Sequence record: EU863408
Source: Escherichia phage JSE
DNA: 64,000 bases
Strand: one strand, 5' to 3'
Shown here: positions 6,774-33,793 of the stretch, in pieces
Numbering within the stretch: the first letter of the stretch is position 1
Layout: each line of letters begins with the position of its first letter
Made by a program: the position numbers and the translations under genes
Notes under the pieces: model-generated
Database searches by the model: none
What the model was told of the DNA's origin: nothing
What the model saw: the letters and a program-made list of their open reading frames with translations, nothing else

Positions 6774-8165
6774 TCAAATATAGTCTACTCGATACCGCGC
6801 ACGGGTAACACCAACATATAATAACTGCATTGCCAATTCAAAGTCAACATTGTCTGTACACATGCAAGGAGTATACAGGAACACGCGGTCTACGCTGATC
6901 CCTTGTGACTTATGAATGGTGCAAGCTGGTAATGCTTTTACATTCAAGAACATACGCTTCATCGTCCAGAATGAATCCCAATCTGGTTTAAATTTTGGAT
7001 TCTCTTTCTTCATTTCGCGATATTGTCCGGCGACCGTATTCAGATAGATAGAGAAAATGTTCTTCTGACGTTGTTCTGTCAGAATGTTGATTTCTACTAA
7101 ATCCGGTTTATCTGTAGTGATTCCGACTGCATCTAAACCGACTTTCTGATTTAGGATCTCTTTGTCTTCGTCATCATCGACGCTTTCCACTTTCAGAGTA
7201 TATCCTAAAACTGGTTGCGGATCTACCCCCGTACAACGTAATGTAAATTCGCGCGGTATAACCTCTTTAACTCGGATCATCTCACCATTGTTAAAAATAA
7301 CATTAGGAATCTTCTTCCCGCGTTCATCTCGCAGATATTCGATCAATGGTTCCTGAGTAACCAGAATTTCATCTACAATCACTGGTTCATCGGTGTTATA
7401 AACGCGCTTACGGACAATTTCATTGAGTTTTTCGACGCTCTTGTTAGTGTAGGCCAGAATACGGTTTTCTAGAAGGTCTTCCGGCGTTTTAACGGTTTCG
7501 AAATAATGCTTCATAAACTCCGGCAGAGTTGAGCTATGGAATACACCCTCGTTACCGCACTGCTTTTCGAATACCCATTTACCATTACGGACAGCGGTCG
7601 CCACATCAATTATTGGCGCATTAGATCGTTTAATCTCTGTAAGTTCTACATTCTGAAACCTTTCATCCGTGAAGAAAGGAGAGATCGACGTTGCACCGCT
7701 CGGATCAACTGGTCGTAACTGGTGCGGATCGCCAACTGCAATAATAACAATTCGACCGTTGATACTCTTCATGAGAATATCAAATAGTTTCTTATCGACC
7801 ATACTCGCTTCATCAACAATGATGATCTGAACATCATCTAGCTTAGGAGTATCTTTTTGCTCAAATACTTGAGTATCTTCATAGTTGGTCGGGTTTAGTC
7901 GCAGTAGTGCATGTAAAGTAAATGCTTGACGACCTACCGCTTTACTCAAAACTTTTTTAGCCTGGTGGGTAGGCGTTGCCAAAACCACACCAGTTACACC
8001 ACGGCGGACCATTTCCTGAACAATGAATTTCATCATTGCGGTTTTACCAGTACCCGCCGCACCACGGACAGTTGTATGCTTCTTTTGTTCAATGCGTTTC
8101 ATTAGAACATCAAAAGCATGTTTTTGCCCGTCTGTTAACATATCGAAAGTTAATACTCTGCTCAT
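6774..8165 (-). CDS. dda: Dda DNA helicase (SF1B)
   Basis: 463 aa; Walker A GAAGTGKT; near-colinear with recalled T4 Dda (SNAPIIDVATAVRNGKW, YVGVTR). Confidence 0.9.
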   Translation of the reverse strand: MSRVLTFDMLTDGQKHAFDVLMKRIEQKKHTTVRGAAGTGKTAMMKFIVQEMVRRGVTGVVLATPTHQAKKVLSKAVGRQAFTLHALLRLNPTNYEDTQVFEQKDTPKLDDVQIIIVDEASMVDKKLFDILMKSINGRIVIIAVGDPHQLRPVDPSGATSISPFFTDERFQNVELTEIKRSNAPIIDVATAVRNGKWVFEKQCGNEGVFHSSTLPEFMKHYFETVKTPEDLLENRILAYTNKSVEKLNEIVRKRVYNTDEPVIVDEILVTQEPLIEYLRDERGKKIPNVIFNNGEMIRVKEVIPREFTLRCTGVDPQPVLGYTLKVESVDDDEDKEILNQKVGLDAVGITTDKPDLVEINILTEQRQKNIFSIYLNTVAGQYREMKKENPKFKPDWDSFWTMKRMFLNVKALPACTIHKSQGISVDRVFLYTPCMCTDNVDFELAMQLLYVGVTRARYRVDYI

Positions 8166-8479
8166 TATCCTAAAATCCTCACCTTGCGAACACAGATAGT
8201 ATTGAGTTCTCGCCGTACCCGTTCTTTTTCATATTCAGGAATTTTATATTCGATACCATCCCGAACAATTTCAGAAGACCGGATTATGCCAAATTTTCGT
8301 TTAGGTACAACCTTGTATTTCGGTTCACCCGCCAATAGACTCTCACAATAATCTATCTGATCACACATTGACGCTAACGCAGCATCATGTGTTTCGCAAG
8401 TTAGGACGCGACCCTTCGCGTCCACTGAGTATTGAAAGAATCCGTCTTTATCACGATAACATACAGCAAATACATGCAT
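8165..8479 (-). CDS. hypothetical protein (dda.1 position)
   Basis: 104-aa ORF, ATGA-coupled to dda. Confidence 0.5.
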   Translation of the reverse strand: MHVFAVCYRDKDGFFQYSVDAKGRVLTCETHDAALASMCDQIDYCESLLAGEPKYKVVPKRKFGIIRSSEIVRDGIEYKIPEYEKERVRRELNTICVRKVRILG

Positions 8480-11294: not shown

Positions 11295-12323
11295 TTAAAA
11301 TTTACAATATTTCATAAACCGCATTTTAGCCATCAGACCTTGTACGGTGTTCTCTTTGATATATTCCATGATCTGGTCGCGTGTAGCGCCCTCGTCCTGA
11401 ATCATGGCATTAACGTCTTTAGAATGCCACGGGCAACGATCCCACAATACAATCTTTTCCCCTGCATTGATAAACTTTTCCAGTCGGTGCATTGTATCGG
11501 CAGATCGTGGTTCCGCATCAAGTACAAACACTCGCTGGTCTGGGAAAGGTATTTCATCTAATCCCAAAGTACCGCCAGTAATTGCACACCCGTTATCAAT
11601 AAACAATGAATCGATCGGACCTTCTAAGAAATACACTGGTTTACTCGGATCGGCGCGTTCAAGACCATAGACCTTACTCGCTAACTCATGAGTTTTAATC
11701 GTCATATATTTGGTCTTTCCGTAATCCTTTCTCAATGCTCGCCCCTGAATGGATTCTATCTTGTTCTCGCGGTTAAAGATAGGAATCACTAAACGCGGCT
11801 CAGGTTGTGGATTCTTGAAAGTATCAGCCTTAATGTGATTTGCTACCTTTTGCCATTCTCTCGTGAAATACAGAAGATCCCATTTATCGTGGGGAATGCA
11901 ACGATCACTGACATACTTTATTATAGGATGATTAGTCGGAAGAGTATCTAATCTCTCGCAGAAAGGCAATGTTTGCACTTTCTTAATCTCCGGCTTTTCT
12001 ACCTTTTTTAGTGGCTTGAACGTGGTGTTCTTGTGGTCGCCTTGTTCCTTCCGTCGTTCCATAAGCCATTCCCTGAATAAGTCCGGCTTATACTGTTTGA
12101 GAAATTCACCTAACGGCTGATTGTAGTTACAGTTGAAACAACCACAACGCAAACTATCCTTATAGGTATAGATACGGAATCGCGCTTGAGTATGATTTTT
12201 CTTTGAGTCACCGCAGATCGGACAACTACAGACCAGCGTAAATGAGCTAGTATGCAACCGTTTAAAATTTCGTTCGCCGTATATGGCTTTTTCCGCTATT
12301 TCATAATCTGCGTAGTAAATCAT
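11295..12323 (-). CDS. 61: DNA primase (zinc ribbon + TOPRIM)
   Basis: 342 aa, same length as T4 gp61; CxxC...CxxC (CSCPICGD...CFNC); TOPRIM acidic motifs. Confidence 0.9.
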   Translation of the reverse strand: MIYYADYEIAEKAIYGERNFKRLHTSSFTLVCSCPICGDSKKNHTQARFRIYTYKDSLRCGCFNCNYNQPLGEFLKQYKPDLFREWLMERRKEQGDHKNTTFKPLKKVEKPEIKKVQTLPFCERLDTLPTNHPIIKYVSDRCIPHDKWDLLYFTREWQKVANHIKADTFKNPQPEPRLVIPIFNRENKIESIQGRALRKDYGKTKYMTIKTHELASKVYGLERADPSKPVYFLEGPIDSLFIDNGCAITGGTLGLDEIPFPDQRVFVLDAEPRSADTMHRLEKFINAGEKIVLWDRCPWHSKDVNAMIQDEGATRDQIMEYIKENTVQGLMAKMRFMKYCKF

Positions 12324-12332
12324 AATAACCTC

Positions 12333-12536
12333 TTATAGCTCAAATTTCATGAAAGTTCCCACACTTTCATTTTCATTCTCTCCGTTTTCATCTAAGCCAA
12401 ATTTGTAGACACTACCATCTGGCGATATGTAAGAGAATACACGAAAACGGCCTACCGGGTCAAGTTCTGTAAATTCATATTCTTTTCCGGCTTCAAAAAG
12501 TGCATATGTGCTTTTAAGACATTTCATCGTAATCAT
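12333..12536 (-). CDS. hypothetical protein
   Basis: 67-aa ORF. Confidence 0.4.
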   Translation of the reverse strand: MITMKCLKSTYALFEAGKEYEFTELDPVGRFRVFSYISPDGSVYKFGLDENGENENESVGTFMKFEL

Positions 12537-12691
12537 TTAAGCGCCACCGATGAGAACATGATAATAATACCAGAATACATAACAGTCTCAGAAATTTTTT
12601 CTGTTTTTGTCTTATATCCAGACAACCCGAAAAAGACAACACCCGAAATAGCCATCACAAGCCCGATAATGAATACAATAAAACTAACCAT
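12533..12691 (-). CDS. small membrane protein (52 aa)
   Basis: hand-translated MVSFIVFIIGLVMAISGVVFFG...; strong SD AAGGAG; ATGA overlap with next gene. Confidence 0.5.
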   Translation of the reverse strand: MVSFIVFIIGLVMAISGVVFFGLSGYKTKTEKISETVMYSGIIIMFSSVALK

Positions 12692-12860
12692 TGTCTTTCT
12701 CCTTTTTGCGTTTTTCTTTACCCGCTACACTAGGTCCACGATTGGTAATAGATCCGCTCGTTTCCCCTGCTGCGATCTTCTCAGGATTGCCGCCAGCATC
12801 GCCAGCGGTCATATCTTCTTTGAGTTTATTTTCTTCAACAAACTGTTTAAAACCAATCAT
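12684..12860 (-). CDS. small Gly/Lys-rich hydrophilic ORF (58 aa)
   Basis: hand-translated; ATGA coupling to upstream ORF. Confidence 0.35.
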   Translation of the reverse strand: MIGFKQFVEENKLKEDMTAGDAGGNPEKIAAGETSGSITNRGPSVAGKEKRKKEKDNG

Positions 12861-13231
12861 AGAATAATCTCTTTCAGTAAGTCAACAATCTGGTCTTTCG
12901 TCAGTTTATCCTGATTCTCTACAATCTTGATAACACAAGCGTTAACATCTTTGCGAGTCACGCGGGAGATCGTTTTAATACGATGAAACGGTTCGTAGAA
13001 ATATACTGCTTCATTATAGGTCGCAGCAATTTTTTGACGCATTTGATCTTTATCGGCCATAAAAACAATTGCAATTTTCGGATCTACACCAGCCACATCA
13101 TAAAGTTCGGCGACTCCCCAGCGTCCTCCCGGTTCAATCATCCCAGCGTGTTTACCGTTAATAAAGATAAGAATGTCTCCGTTATTTGCGGTTTTAAATG
13201 CTACATCTTCCGGCGTAATCATATTCTTCAT
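12857..13231 (-). CDS. hypothetical protein
   Basis: 124-aa ORF between primase and helicase genes. Confidence 0.5.
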   Translation of the reverse strand: MKNMITPEDVAFKTANNGDILIFINGKHAGMIEPGGRWGVAELYDVAGVDPKIAIVFMADKDQMRQKIAATYNEAVYFYEPFHRIKTISRVTRKDVNACVIKIVENQDKLTKDQIVDLLKEIIL

Positions 13232-13261
13232 AATATCGTCTCCTTAGAGTTTCATTATAGA

Positions 13262-17061: not shown

Positions 17062-18538
17062 TTAAATGTCAAACAGGTCCGTCAGTGAAGCAACTTTTTC
17101 ATATTGCAGCTTCGCAGCCGTGGTAATGTTCTCCAGTGGTTTGACGAAAGTCTTATTAAACAACAAAGGCCAGTCCAACCACTTCAACACCTCTGATTCA
17201 ATTTCTGGCGGAATACGAGTACCAGACAACCAACCAAAACAGATTTCTCCAAACGGATTTCGGTCTTTAAGCGGTACAATCATAACCTTCTCGCCTTCAC
17301 GAATCGGATCTAGTCCGAATTTTCGAGCATTACGATTATAACACAATACACTCTTAACCGCATACGGACAACCCTTAATCGGATACCCGTTTGAATCGCT
17401 GTATTTCTGTAGGTTGTTTGCAGATGATACCGCAGCAACATCAAGATAGTCAAGTTTTCTAAATTCTTGCTCAAAAATACCGTAGTATTCCTGCAATGAC
17501 TCTTCACCTTCCTGCAACATACGGCGAATACATTCTTTCAGTGATTTCTGGCATGCTTTAGGGGTGGAGCTACGTTGCGTTTCCAAGCCCATGATTTTTA
17601 GCTTAGGTTCAGCAAAGCGCGTTCCTTCCATATCCCAAACATTAAGAGCATAACGCTTTTTACCAGTCCAGAATCCACCGATACCCGCAGATTTCAACGG
17701 AGGACCAGCAATTGCCTCACGGTCCATAAACATCAAGTGCTCATAGTTGTTCATGTACTCGCATAACTCGCGATATCCCTTGTCGATAATAGGTTCCATT
17801 CGATGTTTACCGAAATTATCAAGGAAGTCAACAAGTTTTTCGGTATCGTCGAAACGGTCTTCCCCGCCAACCTTATCAATAACATTGTTAACCAGCACAT
17901 AAACGGAGTCAGTATCACAATAACGAACATATGCAAAATCAGTCGTTCCGCAAAGCTCGTTTAAGTATTCGTTAATCTTACGCTCAATCCACTGAATTGC
18001 AAGCTGACCGAACAGTGTGATCGCACTAGCGTTACGGAGATCATAAAAACGGAATTTAGGATTCCCCAACGCACCATAAAGGGAGTTGATCAAAACTTTA
18101 CGAGAAAGCTGGTTTGTATTGCACAAGATCGACTCGTCTTTACATTCTTCCAGTAATTTCTCTAATGCATCTTTACTCAATTCAGAAAGCATCGATTTAA
18201 ACGCTTCATCGAAGTCGTGACGCACTTCAACGCTATAGCTAATGGTTCCCCCATAAACATGATTTTCATCGTGTAGAATCGCTTTACAGAGTTCAGCATT
18301 GCGGTCACATGCCAACATCATGTTTTTGTACTGCTTACGCTGATCGAATACCTTTTTAATCTCAATCGGTACGATACCGTGAATATCTTTTCTATACATC
18401 CATCCGTTAGGCGAGCAAGAATACTCATCACTCGGACGTGGTGCAGTTTTATTGATATACTCGTGCATCGGTGCAGCATCAAAAGATCCGGCGATTGTTT
18501 CCGGCGAAATATTAACCTGACGGATGATTGATGGATAC
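17062..18538 (-). CDS. 43: DNA polymerase gp43, exon 2 (motifs A-distal, B, C; thumb)
   Basis: track ORF 17062-18468 extended in frame upstream to 18538, adding YPSIIRQVNISPETIAGSFDAAP; contains KVLINSLYGALG and YCDTDS. Confidence 0.85.
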
Positions 18539-28108: not shown

Positions 28109-28199
28109 AGTCTCTTCCTCTCTTCGTTTTCGATGCTCTCACTATATCACAGAAAAATAAAAAGGGAAACCCCTTTCAGAGTCTCCCTTATAAAAGCCA

Positions 28200-28488: not shown

Positions 28489-28722
28489 TTATTTTACCTC
28501 TGGGATATAATCAATTATTAAAGAAAATTCATCTTCTGATACATTATAGCTATGTGAGATTGTACCCGTCAAGACCTCAAGATCCGGTGATTTGATATTG
28601 CACGGATCGATAATCACCGGAACGCCGCAATCTCTCAAAAATAATTTGGCGAAATACGGCACGAGGTCAGTTTCAAACTCTGCTTCTTCCAGCAAACGGG
28701 AAATGTTAATTTTCAATCTCAT
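28489..28722 (-). CDS. hypothetical protein
   Basis: 77-aa ORF. Confidence 0.4.
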
Positions 28723-29239
28723 AAAATTGGTCCAGGCTAGGCAATTCCTCAGTCAATACATCTTCAACCTTTGGCGCTTTCGGTTTATTGACCGATTCCT
28801 CGTAGTTGTTGATTTTATCGTAAATGTCCTGTATGAATGCCTCATCAGCAATCTGGCACATATCAGCGTCGCGTTCGTCATATACATGATGCACAAAATA
28901 TTTGTATTTTGCGGCTGTCGCTGTTCTCTCTTTTTTAATGCGCTGTACAAAAGCATTAAAGCACGCTTGCGTGATGTAAGCATGAGGATTTTTATACTTT
29001 GTCTCGTCAAAATTAATCAAACCCTTGACCGCCGCTTCGATTCCGTCGTCGATCATTTCTTCGCGCCATGTTTGACTATAACCAGAAAAGTTAAAACGAC
29101 GTGATAGATTTTTAGAGATTTGCATAATTGCTAGGCCGATTTGATCGCTCATTGGAACTTGCCGACCTTCTGCTGCAATTTGTTGTTTCCAACGGCAAAT
29201 TTCTTCGTAAAGCTCTTTATTGTTTACATAATCAGACAC
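28706..29239 (-). CDS. 55: late-transcription sigma factor gp55
   Basis: 177 aa, GTG start; [30 protein letters not shown] and FIQDIYDK identical to recalled T4 gp55. Confidence 0.9.
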
Positions 29240-29279: not shown

Positions 29280-30749
29280 CTATTCCCCATTGCCATTATA
29301 CTTTCTTTGCTTAGTTATCCACACTCTAACCATCTCTACTGATTCACCGTCAGACGGATCAAGAGTTTTTCCTTTTTTCTTCATGCGATACTTAAATCCG
29401 TTAAATCTTGCATTCTCTTGCTCGTTAAAGTCGAACATCTTTTTAAATGATTTTCGCCCTTTACGCTCACCACATTCTAGCGGAATCATTCGGTCTGTTA
29501 TTACATTGGCATTAGGTAGAAACGTTTTTAGATAATCTACCAACGCCCAATCAGGAACATATAGATTAACATTCTCCTTGCTCTCGTTGTCTCTCAGGTT
29601 ACAACGCAAACATAATTGAAATGCTGGTTCCAGATAATCAGACACATGACGCGCTTTCAAAAACTCGTTTGTCGGGAGATCGCAACTATTAGCAAGACCT
29701 TTTAAAATATCAATCTCCCATCGTTGAGGGTTAAAGCTGAACATCACAGCAACATTTTTATGATGAATGTAAGAGTTAAGACCATAAGATCCGTAAGGTA
29801 TCCGCTCACCAATACCATTTGTGCACGCTTCTCGGTCCCGATTCACGGTATAAATGAAGTCATCGCCACATTCATTTTTAACCATATCAACAAGACGTTC
29901 AAAGGTATTGTTTGTTTCTGACTGGTGACGCGACCAGCGTTCGGAGTCAGTCATAAGGATGATGTTAACTCTATCTGTATTTTTATACTCTTTGAAATAT
30001 AGTCTGGATTCTAGCGCACTCGGAACAAAATCGCAATTTGCATAGTATCGTAGATACTTCCCGCTATATGTATCAAAGAGATTTGCACATGCTATCGTAA
30101 CCTTTTTAAAGTCTCCCCACGTACCGTGTTTGTTATCGTTCAAGAAAACAATTTTCGACCCATTCTTCCGGTGTCCTTCGTTATGTTTTACCATAACGTT
30201 GATTTTCTTCTCTAATAACGCCTCATAAAGCCCTCGAAGAGAAGAATCGATCATATCAGTACCATCCTTTGCACTTTCTATCTTTTCTTTGATAGCGGCC
30301 TTCTCAGAGTCTTTTAGAACTAAGTTCTGTAGGCATTCCGATTCGTCGGCGATTGGTTCGCAATGCTTCGTGATAAGTTCAAGATTAGACTTAAACGGAT
30401 ACTCATTAAATTCAACCAGTTGAGGAACTTCATCAATGTAAAGAGCATAATCACCAAACATTTTTGAACGTTCCATATTAGATAACGCTGTATGTGTAAT
30501 GAATATCACATCAGCACCGTCTTTAACTGATTGCATTATCGACGCTTGCACTGTCTTAAGGCTTCTTAGTCTTGTGCTATCGATCAAGACAGCACGACCG
30601 CCCATTCTTTTAAACTTATTGTAAGATTGTTCACTTAAAACACGAGATGGCGAAGCAATAACCGCTTTTTCTTTTGTCTCTAGGACGTGGGAAAGTATAG
30701 CATCAGTTTTCCCCGCCGCTGGCAATGCGATTAATGTTTCAATCTTCAT
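29280..30749 (-). CDS. P-loop NTPase of unknown function (helicase-like Walker A/B)
   Basis: 489 aa; Walker A LPAAGKT near N-terminus; Walker B-like LYIDEVPQ; no match to a T4 core gene that I recognise. Confidence 0.55.
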   Translation of the reverse strand: MKIETLIALPAAGKTDAILSHVLETKEKAVIASPSRVLSEQSYNKFKRMGGRAVLIDSTRLRSLKTVQASIMQSVKDGADVIFITHTALSNMERSKMFGDYALYIDEVPQLVEFNEYPFKSNLELITKHCEPIADESECLQNLVLKDSEKAAIKEKIESAKDGTDMIDSSLRGLYEALLEKKINVMVKHNEGHRKNGSKIVFLNDNKHGTWGDFKKVTIACANLFDTYSGKYLRYYANCDFVPSALESRLYFKEYKNTDRVNIILMTDSERWSRHQSETNNTFERLVDMVKNECGDDFIYTVNRDREACTNGIGERIPYGSYGLNSYIHHKNVAVMFSFNPQRWEIDILKGLANSCDLPTNEFLKARHVSDYLEPAFQLCLRCNLRDNESKENVNLYVPDWALVDYLKTFLPNANVITDRMIPLECGERKGRKSFKKMFDFNEQENARFNGFKYRMKKKGKTLDPSDGESVEMVRVWITKQRKYNGNGE

Positions 30750-31054
30750 TAGAAACCCTTACGTCGTGCTTTCTGGCATTTCTTGATCATTTTATCAGAA
30801 ATTTCGCGCTTAGGTGCAATCTCTTTCACACCGAAAGCACTAATGCCAAATTCAGAGAGAATATATTCAACTAACAATTCACGCACACGCGCTTTACCGA
30901 TATTCACGCCGTTATTTTTCAGATATGTCTGGCCTTCGACTTGCATCAGATCTAAATCTGCGTCGGTAATATTGATTTCTTCCATGCGCCCAAATCGAGA
31001 ATAAACCATGTGTGCGATTGCATTGTGTACTAACATAATATATTCCTCACTCAA
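30749..31054 (-). CDS. hypothetical protein
   Basis: 101-aa ORF, ATGA-coupled. Confidence 0.45.
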   Translation of the reverse strand: MSEEYIMLVHNAIAHMVYSRFGRMEEINITDADLDLMQVEGQTYLKNNGVNIGKARVRELLVEYILSEFGISAFGVKEIAPKREISDKMIKKCQKARRKGF

Positions 31055-31057
31055 GAA

Positions 31058-31216
31058 TTACTTAATGATACTTACTTTACCAGATCCGTGACAATGAGCA
31101 CAACACCCATCACCACGCAATCCTGTTCCGTTACAGTGTTTACACTTCTTCAACGGTAAAGCCATTATAGCAAATAAAGCAATAATGAACACCGAAACTA
31201 AATTCTCAATAATCAT
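31058..31216 (-). CDS. small membrane protein with DnaJ-type zinc finger
   Basis: track ORF 31058-31282; start at ATG 31214-31216 (SD GGGAG); one TM then CKHCNGTG...CAHCHGSG. Confidence 0.45.
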   Translation of the reverse strand: MIIENLVSVFIIALFAIMALPLKKCKHCNGTGLRGDGCCAHCHGSGKVSIIK

Positions 31217-31475
31217 AAATCTCCCTAAGTTCTTTATAGCCTCCAATGTGCTCGTTGTCAATGAATATCTGGGGGTATACAAATCGGAGGCTCTTTGAGT
31301 TCAGCCTCCCCGCCAGTTCTTCAATCATATCACGGTCGGGAATAATGTCAACCCCAACCTGCTTGAATACTGGTTTAAGTGTATACGGAATACCCAGATC
31401 ATCCAGTAGCTTCATTGCACTAATACAACCATAACAATGATAAGCCTCTTTCGGTATGCCGTATATCTCGATCAT
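31206..31475 (-). CDS. nrdH: glutaredoxin-like protein NrdH
   Basis: 89 aa; CYGC active site; YPQIFIDNEHIGGY. Confidence 0.8.
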   Translation of the reverse strand: MIEIYGIPKEAYHCYGCISAMKLLDDLGIPYTLKPVFKQVGVDIIPDRDMIEELAGRLNSKSLRFVYPQIFIDNEHIGGYKELREIYDY

Positions 31476-31948
31476 TTCTCAGCCTTTAATCGTTCTAGTT
31501 CTTCTTCCAGTTCCTTGATCCGTTGGTCACGTTCAAAGTCACGCTGCAACTTAGTGGCGAATACTCGTTTAAACTGATTGTAATCATCGATTTTAAACAC
31601 TTCTTCTTCGCCATAGCGACGTACAGAAACTTCGTAGTTATTGAAGAATTGTTGCATCATTGCTTCGGATGATAGTTCTGCCGATACTACTTTAAAATAT
31701 TGATCTTCTGTAGGCGAAAACCAATTGCAAGCATAAAGATAAACCTTTTCATTGTCTGGACACTGGTAAGCCTTACCATCGATTTCAATCACAGAAACAT
31801 ATTCAGGTATAGTAGATGAATCAATAGCTAAGACTTTAAACGAACGGTCCCCGATAAACTCGGAGATCACACGATTCGCATCACTGGTTGCAAATGCTTT
31901 ACGCGCTTGTTCGTTTTTCCACTGATAGGTCATACCAACAACAAACAT
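31472..31948 (-). CDS. paralog-family protein (WEVGKTY-type repeat, family A)
   Basis: track ORF 31472-31972; start at ATG 31946-31948; shares N-terminal and beta-rich core with next three ORFs. Confidence 0.5.
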   Translation of the reverse strand: MFVVGMTYQWKNEQARKAFATSDANRVISEFIGDRSFKVLAIDSSTIPEYVSVIEIDGKAYQCPDNEKVYLYACNWFSPTEDQYFKVVSAELSSEAMMQQFFNNYEVSVRRYGEEEVFKIDDYNQFKRVFATKLQRDFERDQRIKELEEELERLKAEK

Positions 31949-31949
31949 A

Positions 31950-32774
31950 TTACCAACCTCGCTCTTTACCAATCAAAAATTCAACTTCACGACGTTTAAT
32001 GTCTTCTTGAAGGTCTTTAATCTTCTGGCGATCTTGCATTATTTCGTCCATCTTGTCAAGTGCTGCGATGAAATCATCGAAACGTTCAAAGGTTTTACCT
32101 TCATTTGCTTCGCCAAATTTAACCATTGTCAGGCCGTAACGACTACTAAACAGACGTTTCAACTGTCCAACGATTTTAGAATCAGTGGTTATAACTTCCA
32201 ATTCTTCTACTTCACGAAAGAATTTTCTATCAGAATCAATAAACCAGCTAGTTCCCTTATGGTCGCTATCTTCTGTTGCGCTCATTAGAGTATGGTCTTT
32301 ACCATCAATTTCAATTACATCAATTTGCCCACATGGACTAACATTTTTAACAGTAAAAGGTCTATAATTTATTGCTCGTGCAATAACATAATTAAGGTTA
32401 GATACGTTTTCAGCATAATGGCAGAAGTCTGTCATAGCATTCGCATCTTTCCAAGTATAAGTTTTACCAACTTCCCATTTCTGGGGAACTTCTTCAACTT
32501 CACGAAAGAATTTTCTATCAAATGGACTAAAGAAATATGTTGCAGTCCAAATGTCTTTTCCTGTAGCAGTTTTCGCCGTATGATAAACACCGTCTAGCTC
32601 TATTGCATCAATCCAACCGTTACCCTCGATCTCGATGATGGTAAATGGCTTGTCACCAATAGCTGCACTAATATCGCTGTTAAGTGGAGAAAGAACACCT
32701 TCTCCGTTAGTAATAAACTCAGTTTTAGCGTTTTCGTCTTTCCAGGTGTAAGTTTTACCAATTTCCCATTTCAT
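31950..32774 (-). CDS. paralog-family protein with two tandem repeat modules (family A)
   Basis: 274 aa; MKWEIGKTYTWKDENAKTEF and QKWEVGKTYTWKDANAMTDF each followed by ...IDVIEIDGK... Confidence 0.55.
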   Translation of the reverse strand: MKWEIGKTYTWKDENAKTEFITNGEGVLSPLNSDISAAIGDKPFTIIEIEGNGWIDAIELDGVYHTAKTATGKDIWTATYFFSPFDRKFFREVEEVPQKWEVGKTYTWKDANAMTDFCHYAENVSNLNYVIARAINYRPFTVKNVSPCGQIDVIEIDGKDHTLMSATEDSDHKGTSWFIDSDRKFFREVEELEVITTDSKIVGQLKRLFSSRYGLTMVKFGEANEGKTFERFDDFIAALDKMDEIMQDRQKIKDLQEDIKRREVEFLIGKERGW

Positions 32775-32786
32775 AATATATTCCCC

Positions 32787-33251
32787 TTAACCGATTTTAT
32801 CAAGTTCGTTTAATGCTTTCTCTGCTTCCTGTATAGCTTGCACCCTTTCCGGCATTTTGTCAAGAAAATCTTTCAACTCTTCAAAACTGGAGATATGACG
32901 CAAGGCGTTAGCACCGATAGCCGCATGTGATTTGCATTCAAAGCGGATTTTATAATTATCCATCGCCAATTTGAGAAGATCAATTAATTTAGATTCTTCT
33001 GGAATAATAATTTCTTCAAATCTGCTACGGTCATGATCCAGAAACCAACAAGATAGACCTACATCGGTTGAACTCATATAAGTTCCATCATGAAGATAAA
33101 CAGACCGCACGTATCCTTTTTTCGCATCAACCGACGCAACTTTAAACGGTAATCTCAGATATTTCAAATAATCAACATCATACCATTTAAAAAATTGGTT
33201 TGCATCTTTTACATCTTTCCACGCATAGGTCTTACCAACTTCCCATTTCAT
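32787..33251 (-). CDS. paralog-family protein (family A)
   Basis: track ORF 32787-33266; start MKWEVGKTYAWKD at 33249-33251. Confidence 0.55.
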   Translation of the reverse strand: MKWEVGKTYAWKDVKDANQFFKWYDVDYLKYLRLPFKVASVDAKKGYVRSVYLHDGTYMSSTDVGLSCWFLDHDRSRFEEIIIPEESKLIDLLKLAMDNYKIRFECKSHAAIGANALRHISSFEELKDFLDKMPERVQAIQEAEKALNELDKIG

Positions 33252-33255
33252 AATA

Positions 33256-33783
33256 TCATCTCTCATTTTTGATACGTGATTCTAATTGGATCATACGGTC
33301 GCGCGTTTGCTTGTATTCGCGGATAGCACCGATCCGGCTAGGCATACCATCAAGCACGCTCTTAATACCTTCTAGGGTAGTAATTTTGGCAATGCTATTA
33401 TGTAACCCCATCTTATCGATCAACTGAATGTCGTAGGCTTCCATAAGCAGACCCAGGCGTTCTAAAGTTAGGTCTTCTTCTTTTTCTTCCGATTCTGGAA
33501 TCTTAGGTTCAATAGTAACTTCGGTAAAGAAACGACGCTCACCCGACCAAAACCACACACCGGAACAGCCAATAGGGGATTCTTTTAACGTCATAGAGTC
33601 GAAATTACTACCAATAATAGTAATTTCTCTAACATCACCATCATCGTCAAGGTCTTCTACCCTAAACGGGCGACCAGCCAACAAGTCCACAATACATCTG
33701 TTAATAGACGACGAAAATTTAGTCAGTTCGGCTTTCGACGCTTCGCATTCAATCTTGTAAGTTTTACCAACTTCCCATTCCAT
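33256..33783 (-). CDS. paralog-family protein (family A)
   Basis: track ORF 33256-33792; start MEWEVGKTYKIE at 33781-33783 with SD GAGGTG. Confidence 0.55.
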   Translation of the reverse strand: MEWEVGKTYKIECEASKAELTKFSSSINRCIVDLLAGRPFRVEDLDDDGDVREITIIGSNFDSMTLKESPIGCSGVWFWSGERRFFTEVTIEPKIPESEEKEEDLTLERLGLLMEAYDIQLIDKMGLHNSIAKITTLEGIKSVLDGMPSRIGAIREYKQTRDRMIQLESRIKNER

Positions 33784-33793
33784 AATAATCACC

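Follow-up and report, generated by a model that had tools for sequence, protein, structure and literature searches.

A superfamily 2 helicase-like ATPase gene beside gene 55 of Escherichia phage JSE, and its primase-linked relatives

What does a protein of 489 residues with nucleotide-binding motifs do in a T4-type phage, if it matches none of the helicases known from T4 replication? The question is raised by a gene of Escherichia phage JSE (sequence record EU863408), a T4-type phage of the Krischvirus (RB49/GEC-3S-like) kind. The gene lies between nrdH and gene 55, which encodes the late sigma factor gp55, in a stretch of 64,000 nucleotides that is called the window below. A preliminary description of the window presented it as a large orphan P-loop nucleoside triphosphatase, and the position and length given there for the open reading frame (ORF), which is on the minus strand, are exact (Table 1). 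As described below, the gene is an uncharacterised member of a helicase family whose existence had been predicted by computation in 2018. Its product is very probably an active superfamily 2 (SF2) nucleic-acid-dependent ATPase, judging from its motifs, and the chances are about even that it has a part in replicating phage DNA, initiation or priming included. Support for the fold and for the class of enzyme is good; the role in replication is one that we infer from relatives of the protein.

Motifs and predicted fold

Conservation can be read from an alignment of 42 homologues that are 32-74% identical to the JSE protein; residues are numbered with the initiator methionine as 1. The Walker A sequence ALPAAGKT occupies residues 8-15 (DNA 30705..30728), and the Walker B-like sequence YIDEVPQ occupies residues 104-110 (DNA 30420..30440), 91 residues after K14. 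Both had been picked out in the preliminary description, and both are real and not due to chance: G13, K14, T15, D106, E107 and P109 are invariant in the 42 homologues. The Walker A lysine, the aspartate and glutamate of motif II, and the glutamine and both arginines of motif VI are invariant also in the alignments of two sets of relatives considered below, the long forms and the out-group.

Other conserved blocks have been assigned to the named SF2 motifs by their order and by the structural model (Table 1), and these names should be taken as putative. The block at residues 32-42 ('ASxSRxLSxQS') would be motif Ia, given its position and its similarity to the PTRELAxQ sequence in the Protein Data Bank (PDB) alignment of the long forms, and the conserved 'VIFITH' block at residues 81-86 resembles motif Ib. 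Motif V contacts nucleic acid in SF2 enzymes; the corresponding block here can be written 'PYxxxGLNxY'. Motif VI ('FQLCxRxxxR') has Cys or Met, not Gly, after Q-x-x. Two tandem RecA-like domains, GKT in motif I, DExx in motif II, and motifs V and VI together make SF2 a well-supported assignment. The spacing of the Walker motifs had earlier been compared with that in superfamily 1 (SF1) and SF2 helicases alike; of that reading the helicase likeness stands, and the class can now be specified as SF2 from motifs V and VI and from the fold. General sequence searches return little. The Pfam model DEAD (PF00270, DEAD/DEAH) matches residues 11-130 only, within the N-terminal lobe, at 27.3 bits with a cut-off of 26. 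The PDB sequence search gives 0 matches for the single protein and only a chance match to IclR for the profile (E 0.72), and NCBIfam has no match for the protein.

All of the residues predicted to bind and hydrolyse ATP (K14/T15, D106/E107 and Q378/R382/R386) are invariant, as would be expected of a catalytically competent enzyme. This observation bears on the idea that the gene is a relic: a mobile-element replication protein that has degenerated and lost its enzymatic activity, and is retained for some structural or regulatory role or simply tolerated. Such an origin would fit the lack of the primase or helix-turn-helix (HTH) modules that relatives of the protein carry, and the lack of the whole gene in T-even phages. 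Against it, the catalytic residues are invariant down to 32% identity and across the wider family, 236 of 242 matching phage records reach at least 80% coverage, the mean column identity of the alignment is 56%, and the divergence is comparable to that of core genes. Invariant catalytic residues, kept length and core-like divergence therefore argue for purifying selection on an active enzyme, and a relic is extremely improbable.

In the AlphaFold2 model, RecA lobe 1 is made up of residues ~1-110 and ~207-255, and RecA lobe 2 of residues ~256-420. An insertion domain of about 95 residues interrupts lobe 1 after motif II. A comparison of folds had been proposed in the preliminary description; when it is made, the nearest neighbours of the model and its best full-length structural matches are the XPD/Rad3/DinG helicases (PDB 2vl7, 3crv, 6fwr and 8s35), which likewise have two RecA lobes and an insertion in lobe 1 after motif II. 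The structural alignments with XPD/DinG span 312-369 residues, longer than two bare RecA lobes, and the insertion may be the counterpart of the XPD Arch domain.

Membership in the XPD/DinG family is a different matter. The JSE protein is much shorter than these helicases and its tail is unrelated to theirs. It has no insertion between motifs Ia and II, and it lacks the four conserved cysteines of the iron-sulphur (FeS, 4Fe-4S) cluster domain that XPD/DinG proteins have inserted in helicase domain 1 (only C130 and C380 are invariant, and these are 250 residues apart). The Pfam models DEAD_2 and Helicase_C_2 do not match it even at E<=10. The missing FeS cysteines and the missing Pfam family match rule out membership. 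A functional analogy could still be drawn from the fold: the protein would then be a repair or recombination helicase of XPD/DinG type, moving 5'->3' on single-stranded DNA and acting on R-loops and D-loops, stalled forks or recombination intermediates, as a specialised or back-up analogue of UvsW or Dda and not as an initiation factor. With the resemblance in fold on one side and the absent cluster on the other, we find this rather doubtful as an account of the gene. The 5'->3' polarity itself would be a weak guess, taken only from the similarity in fold.

The protein ends in a basic tail of three predicted helices, with an isoelectric point of 9.81, compared with 6.25 for the core. The tails of the T4-type proteins are homologous to those of the out-group (hhalign probability 96.7%, E 3.7e-10), with the signal coming from the segment after the VPD motif and from tails like that of the out-group protein P0051. 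Compared with the HTH tails of other relatives, the probability is 0.5% (E 0.11; reversed control 0.58), and at that value an HTH identity of the tail in the window protein is unsupported. About 60 residues after motif VI, at a fixed distance, many family members (including P0163, P0137 and P0103) have a basic helix with the consensus (S/T)xxAE(K/R)Q+xYRxR+K. The version in the window is FNEQENARFNGFKYRMKKK, at residues ~440-460 around E445 (DNA about 29370..29432). The strict pattern occurs in 45 of 232 sequences and in 6 of 232 shuffled tails. This helix may resemble the basic region of bZIP-type proteins.

A predicted helicase family and its relatives

Where does such a protein belong? Kazlauskas et al. 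(2018, J Mol Biol, PMC5862659) predicted a 'pVOG1685/9714' helicase family for 'some T4-like phages and SPbeta', with remote similarity to SF2, clear Walker A and B motifs, and homologous helicase domains fused to archaeo-eukaryotic primases (AEP); in the All3500 family of primases, the helicase domain is C-terminal (Prim + zf-CHC2 + helicase). The same work links pVOG9714 to UL9, and contains no structure, motifs beyond Walker A and B, T4-type synteny or function. Members in T4-like phages and in SPbeta, SF2 character with Walker motifs, and AEP fusions were all recovered independently in the present analysis, and from these shared properties, rather than from the pVOG profiles, we conclude that the JSE gene belongs to the predicted family. 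The fusions found here are mostly helicase-first, whereas those of PMC5862659 are primase-first. The literature search turned up no experiments on any family member, and no functional data on a helicase of this kind in Krischvirus.

The profile search returns 1329 cluster representatives at E<=1e-3. Some of them carry an AEP primase-polymerase domain, attached at the C-terminal end and, it seems, in some cases at the N-terminal end; the order in most of the fusions is helicase, AEP-like domain and helical end. These primase-fused relatives are distant (22-25% identity). C-terminal stretches with near-threshold matches to HTH domains were seen in all seven of the non-T4 short forms tested. The fold also occurs in BFVD models from Agrobacterium phage Atu_ph07, Ralstonia phage phiRSL1, Fusobacterium phage Fnu1, Pseudoalteromonas phage H101 and Achromobacter phage Motura, and most of the BFVD fold matches are unnamed or merely called helicase. 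Scans of viral contigs with the single sequences P0051, P0053 and P0055 gave no matches.

In the Bacillus phage SPbeta, the sole significant match among all ORFs is YonV (410 residues, hypothetical), a family member with the full core, with E 1.6e-10 over profile positions 5-423 for the out-group hidden Markov model (HMM) and E 2.1e-11 for the long-form HMM. The T4-type HMM also ranks YonV first, in three collinear pieces (motifs I, Ib-II and VI), at a value that is not significant (E 0.15). The putative link between the T4-type clade and YonV is thus a transitive one, by way of the out-group and long-form HMMs. The yonV gene (67250..68482 of its record, or 17250..18482 of the excised locus L042) is outside the yorI-yorL replication cluster.

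Several of the long forms are found in elements that carry integrases or recombinases. In two contigs, L008 and L009, the long form comes after a tyrosine integrase (Arm-DNA-bind_3 + Phage_integrase), a small ORF and a gene with an AlpA-like HTH_17 domain, and the cargo downstream of it includes Metallophos, PLDc and Mrr_cat genes. The slot after the integrase and the AlpA-like gene is presumably the one that holds the replication gene in P4-like islands. The helicases of P4 alpha and of the pri-rep proteins of phage-inducible islands belong to superfamily 3 or 4 (SF3 or SF4), usually with the primase N-terminal. The L008/L009 long form is likewise a helicase plus a primase in this slot; it differs from those proteins in that its helicase is SF2 and N-terminal, and the JSE protein differs further in having no primase domain. 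Elsewhere, the long form adjoins a resolvase, an AAA_25 ATPase and a PolB-exonuclease-like gene (L045), is 5 kb from an integrase (L046), or adjoins an ATP-dependent DNA ligase in a Bradyrhizobium chromosome (L007); a fifth context (L044) is uninformative. Because relatives are fused to primases or HTH-like modules, some of them in integrase- or recombinase-bearing elements, DNA is the most likely substrate of the JSE protein, and replication the most likely process.

The nearest short forms of the out-group, P0051 and P0248, come from phage-like contigs of 139-146 kb (L039 and L040), and the homologues in these are ~46% identical to each other. A family member is downstream of a DNA methyltransferase gene directly in L040, one gene further on in phage Atu_ph07 (L005) and two genes on in L039; the enzymes are of the N6_N4_Mtase type in L039 and L040, and the one in Atu_ph07 is annotated 'DNA methyltransferase'. 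This neighbourhood outside the T4-type clade may be coincidence or a functional link. The homologues in L040 and L039 are followed by 1.2-1.8 kb free of genes (11489..13246 and 11498..12671, respectively). Both gaps are rich in palindromes, with several short families (TATAACACGTTGTGTTAT and TATAGCGTTGCTATA, for instance, occur three times each), and contain no tRNAs; in the AT-rich gap of L040 the GC content falls as low as 0.25. The gaps could be origins, clusters of promoters and terminators, or small-RNA genes. Since the window has no equivalent, the origin-like gap is not used as support here.

Comparison can be extended to better known helicases. Herpesvirus UL9 (PF02399, Herpes_ori_bp) has a similar general plan, an SF2 core followed by a C-terminal DNA-binding module, and PF02399 matches 2 of 40 long forms weakly (E 0.0086). 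The JSE protein has no PF02399 match, UL9 is outside its top 50 fold matches in BFVD, and a relationship of the T4-type branch to UL9 is unsupported by these negative results; in contrast to UL9, no sequence-specific DNA-binding domain can be demonstrated in the T4-type tail. The preliminary description was also correct in finding no counterpart among the canonical T4 replication proteins: UvsW (SF2), Dda (SF1) and gp41 (SF4) have no sequence homology to the JSE protein. In T4-like phages the genes for these three count as core or quasi-core (PMC2993671, Table 3), unlike the JSE gene, which is absent from T-even phages. Its product would be an additional, fourth helicase-like protein of T4-type phages.

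The gene in T4-type phages and its neighbours

How widespread is the gene? In a tblastn search, it is found in 242 phage records. The carriers are Krischvirus, Pseudotevenvirus (RB16/RB43-like), Aeromonas phages (44RR, 25, 65, CC2 and others) and T4-like phages of Proteus, Morganella, Serratia, Erwinia, Cronobacter, Citrobacter, Klebsiella and Enterobacter. 'Escherichia' appears in the names of 52 records and 'Enterobacteria' in those of five, and 55 records in all are at least 99% identical; the protein is 100% identical in Escherichia phages kaaroe, MIZ5 and PTE-Eco09 and 99.8% identical in GEC-3S. The 15 Escherichia-type records listed among the matches are all either Krischvirus-like (at least 99%) or RB16/Lw1/UPEC03-like (~35%), and therefore T-even phages do not have the gene at the sensitivity of tblastn. 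With this distribution, the 1329 cluster representatives and the family prediction of 2018, the term 'orphan' does not hold. The annotation is 'hypothetical protein' in 63 of the 63 annotated records listed; one more record is unannotated, and one truncated match overlies no feature. In PHROGs, the protein matches phrog_2467 ('unknown function') from end to end (E 2.9e-175). Two other ideas about the gene were dropped. An origin in the host is rejected, as blastn against 5,426 E. coli genomes gave no match to the gene. A correlation with unmodified cytosine DNA is rejected as well, since Erwinia phage Cronus has both the gene and an alpha-glucosyltransferase.

The family alignment finds 29 loci in IMG/VR, and all 29 are T4-type phage genomes or fragments. 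The order kept in them is nrdG ... nrdH ... (gp55.2-like) ... helicase-like gene ... gene 55 ... two small ORFs ... gene 47, except in the RB16/RB43 group, where tail-fibre gene 34 comes after the helicase-like gene. The locus, which had been described as varying among T4-type phages, is on the contrary conserved in position outside that group. Identity to the window proteins in these loci is 35-42% for the helicase-like protein, 34-63% for gp55 and 37-56% for gp47, so that the gene diverges about as fast as genes 55 and 47. It is an old gene, vertically inherited at a fixed place and under purifying selection, and not a recent insertion. The GC content of the JSE gene is that of the surrounding genome (0.39-0.41).

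A vertical history is also relevant to the proposal that the protein is a factor in conflicts, directed at host defence or used against or by satellites and mobile elements, for example to displace defence proteins or to hinder the helicase-primase replication of islands. The gene is non-core and patchy among T4-type phages, relatives include replication-type proteins of islands with defence-like cargo (Mrr_cat, PLDc, Metallophos), and homologues in other phages have DNA methyltransferase genes as neighbours, as is usual in early regions devoted to anti-restriction. Counter-defence genes turn over fast, however, whereas this one has been inherited stably and vertically at one position and has diverged like a core gene, and PADLOC gives no significant match: the best (E 0.0089) is a chance one to an unrelated reverse-transcriptase model. 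Assignment to a defence system is rejected on that result and on the lack of an NCBIfam match. The fully conserved catalytic motifs favour none of the readings over another. A conflict factor is, on balance, unlikely.

In the window, gp55 (28706..29239) is directly downstream of the helicase-like gene after a 40-bp spacer, and nrdH (31206..31475) is upstream, with ORFs of 101 and 74 residues between. The 101-residue ORF is homologous to genes annotated 55.2 (gp55.2) in RB16 and in Aeromonas phages 25 and 65; T4 gp55.2 is reported to inhibit topoisomerase I. The TAA stop codon of this ORF and the ATG of the helicase-like gene share one base (TAATG), which suggests that their translation may be coupled. 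A gp55.2-like ORF was detected in 15 of the 29 loci and is directly adjacent in ~10 of them. The position directly upstream is taken by a gp55.2-like gene in Krischvirus, in RB16-type loci and in some loci of the Proteus group, by a DprA-like gene in Aeromonas phage 25, and by a small ORF in Erwinia phage Cronus. An obligatory two-gene module is rejected on these grounds.

Pattern matches, and these only, make the gene appear to be part of a sigma-70-type early unit that would consist of a promoter-like site, the 101-residue ORF, the helicase-like gene, gene 55, two small ORFs and a terminator. The promoter-like pattern is a consensus match only, with 29 sites observed in the region where 22.5 are expected. 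The annotation of GEC-3S likewise has a terminator at the corresponding point. A pattern search of the region found no TATAAATA late promoter near the gene.

Co-expression with the late sigma factor gp55 is the starting point for a reading in terms of RNA: a DEAD-like RNA helicase, or a translocase associated with RNA polymerase, that would aid the switch from early to late transcription. Against this, the DEAD-box signatures (Q motif, DEAD, SAT and HRIGR) are absent from the alignment, where motif II is DEVP; linkage to gene 55 is not obligatory, as the RB16/RB43-type gene adjoins gene 34; and the fusions in the family are to DNA primases and DNA-binding HTH modules. A function in transcription or RNA metabolism is very unlikely.

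Table 1. Coordinates of the helicase-like gene, its motifs and domains, and nearby features of the window
Feature	Position	Strand	Basis or remark
Gene for 489-residue SF2 helicase-like ATPase (predicted)	29280..30749	-	ATG start; phrog_2467; T4-type branch of pVOG1685/9714-like family
Motif I / Walker A, PAAGKT, residues 10-15	30705..30722	-	P10, G13, K14, T15 invariant in 42 sequences
Motif Ia-like, ASPSRVLSEQS, residues 32-42	30624..30656	-	S33, L38, S42 invariant; A32, S35, R36, S39, Q41 at least 90% conserved
Motif II / Walker B, LYIDEVP, residues 103-109	30423..30443	-	L103, D106, E107, P109 invariant
Insertion domain (~95 residues) in RecA lobe 1, after motif II, residues ~111-206	30132..30419	-	AlphaFold2 secondary structure
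Motif V-like, PYGSYGLNSY, residues 318-327	29769..29798	-	G323, N325 invariant in T4-type clade, long forms and out-group
Motif VI, FQLCLRCNLR, residues 377-386 (Q-x3-R-x3-R, putative arginine fingers)	29592..29621	-	F377, Q378, L379, C380, R382, R386 invariant
VPD, residues 398-400, end of RecA lobe 2	29550..29558	-	Invariant in 42 sequences; V/D conserved in long forms and out-group
Basic three-helix C-terminal tail, residues 421-489	29283..29489	-	AlphaFold2 helices
101-residue gp55.2-like ORF	30749..31054	-	Upstream neighbour; phrog_1475, E 8e-33
Sigma-70-type promoter-like site	31065..31094	-	Upstream of 101-residue ORF; pattern match 10/12; possible start of transcription unit
Intrinsic terminator-like hairpin	28162..28189	-	12-bp stem, then T-run

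Some further features of the window can be recorded here. The 74-residue ORF (31058..31282, minus strand; 52 residues in the GEC-3S annotation) overlaps the end of nrdH. The N-terminal segment of its product is hydrophobic, and the repeat CxxCxGxG, which we take to be a DnaJ-type zinc-finger motif, occurs in it twice (CKHCNGTG ... CAHCHGSG); the protein matches phrog_3931 (unknown function). Between nrdH and nrdG (31472..33792, minus strand) are four tandem paralogous ORFs of 166, 274 (with an internal duplication), 159 and 178 residues, a locally amplified gene family in which some variant of 'W-(E/K)-(V/I)-GKTY-x-W-K-D' opens every unit. The 166- and 274-residue proteins, the two that were scanned against PHROGs, have matches to phrog_5347 and weaker ones to families annotated 'goF mRNA metabolism modulator'. 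An open frame of ~480 codons at 6777..8228 (minus strand) has a weak match (E 0.008) to the long-form HMM and probably encodes another P-loop or helicase-type phage protein.

A possible role in replication

How might the protein work? ATP would bind in the cleft between the two lobes, with K14/T15 contacting the phosphates, D106/E107 the magnesium ion and water, and R382/R386 serving as arginine fingers. Cycles of hydrolysis would then move the lobes along a nucleic-acid strand held by motifs Ia, Ib and V, and the basic tail would add affinity for DNA. In the infected cell, the protein would be an early accessory, non-core helicase or translocase that opens or remodels DNA at the places where replication or priming begins, alongside gp41, UvsW and Dda of the core set. 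T4-type phages already have these three, and T-even phages do without the gene; the protein would therefore be an accessory and not the main replicative helicase.

Several observations weigh against this role. It is assigned by association with primase fusions in distant relatives. The T4-type protein has no primase domain of its own; no AEP partner or second copy of the helicase family is present in the window, and tblastn finds no AEP-like partner in T4-type genomes. The arrangement of integrase, AlpA-like gene and long form accounts for one of five long-form contexts, in two contigs. Sequence-specific origin binding is unsupported, the tail not being demonstrably HTH, and no origin-like non-coding region adjoins the gene in the window, where there is only the 40-bp spacer. 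XPD/DinG helicases are defined by an FeS cluster, which the protein lacks, and its similarity to them is moderate. Finally, replication in T-even phages proceeds without the gene, and gp41, UvsW and Dda are already at hand in T4-type phages.

A more specific form of the replication role can be put forward for the T4-type phages outside the T-even group (Krischvirus, RB43/RB16, Aeromonas and Proteus-group phages). In these, the protein would be an initiator helicase of the mobile-element type, which recognises or opens specific sites on the phage genome by means of its basic tail and recruits the gp61 primase. We think this improbable. Initiation in T4 uses R-loops made by RNA polymerase, and recombination; T4 is not known to have protein-directed initiation. 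An initiator helicase would give these phages a protein-directed mode of starting replication, and initiation would differ within the T4 group.

If the protein is instead an accessory or conflict helicase, the result is an ordinary one, and an extra helicase in a large phage would not surprise specialists. T4-type phages are nevertheless a reference system for DNA replication, with gp41, Dda and UvsW among the best-studied helicases, and here a fourth helicase-type ATPase, as predicted, is conserved in many relatives of T4 and absent from T4 itself. Its placement in the family would allow consistent annotation of several hundred phage genes. The interest of the gene lies in its absence from T4, in its link to the primase-fused replication proteins of mobile elements and in the ease of testing: for RB49 or GEC-3S, membership in a large AEP-primase-linked family provides a hypothesis that is both concrete and cheap to pursue.

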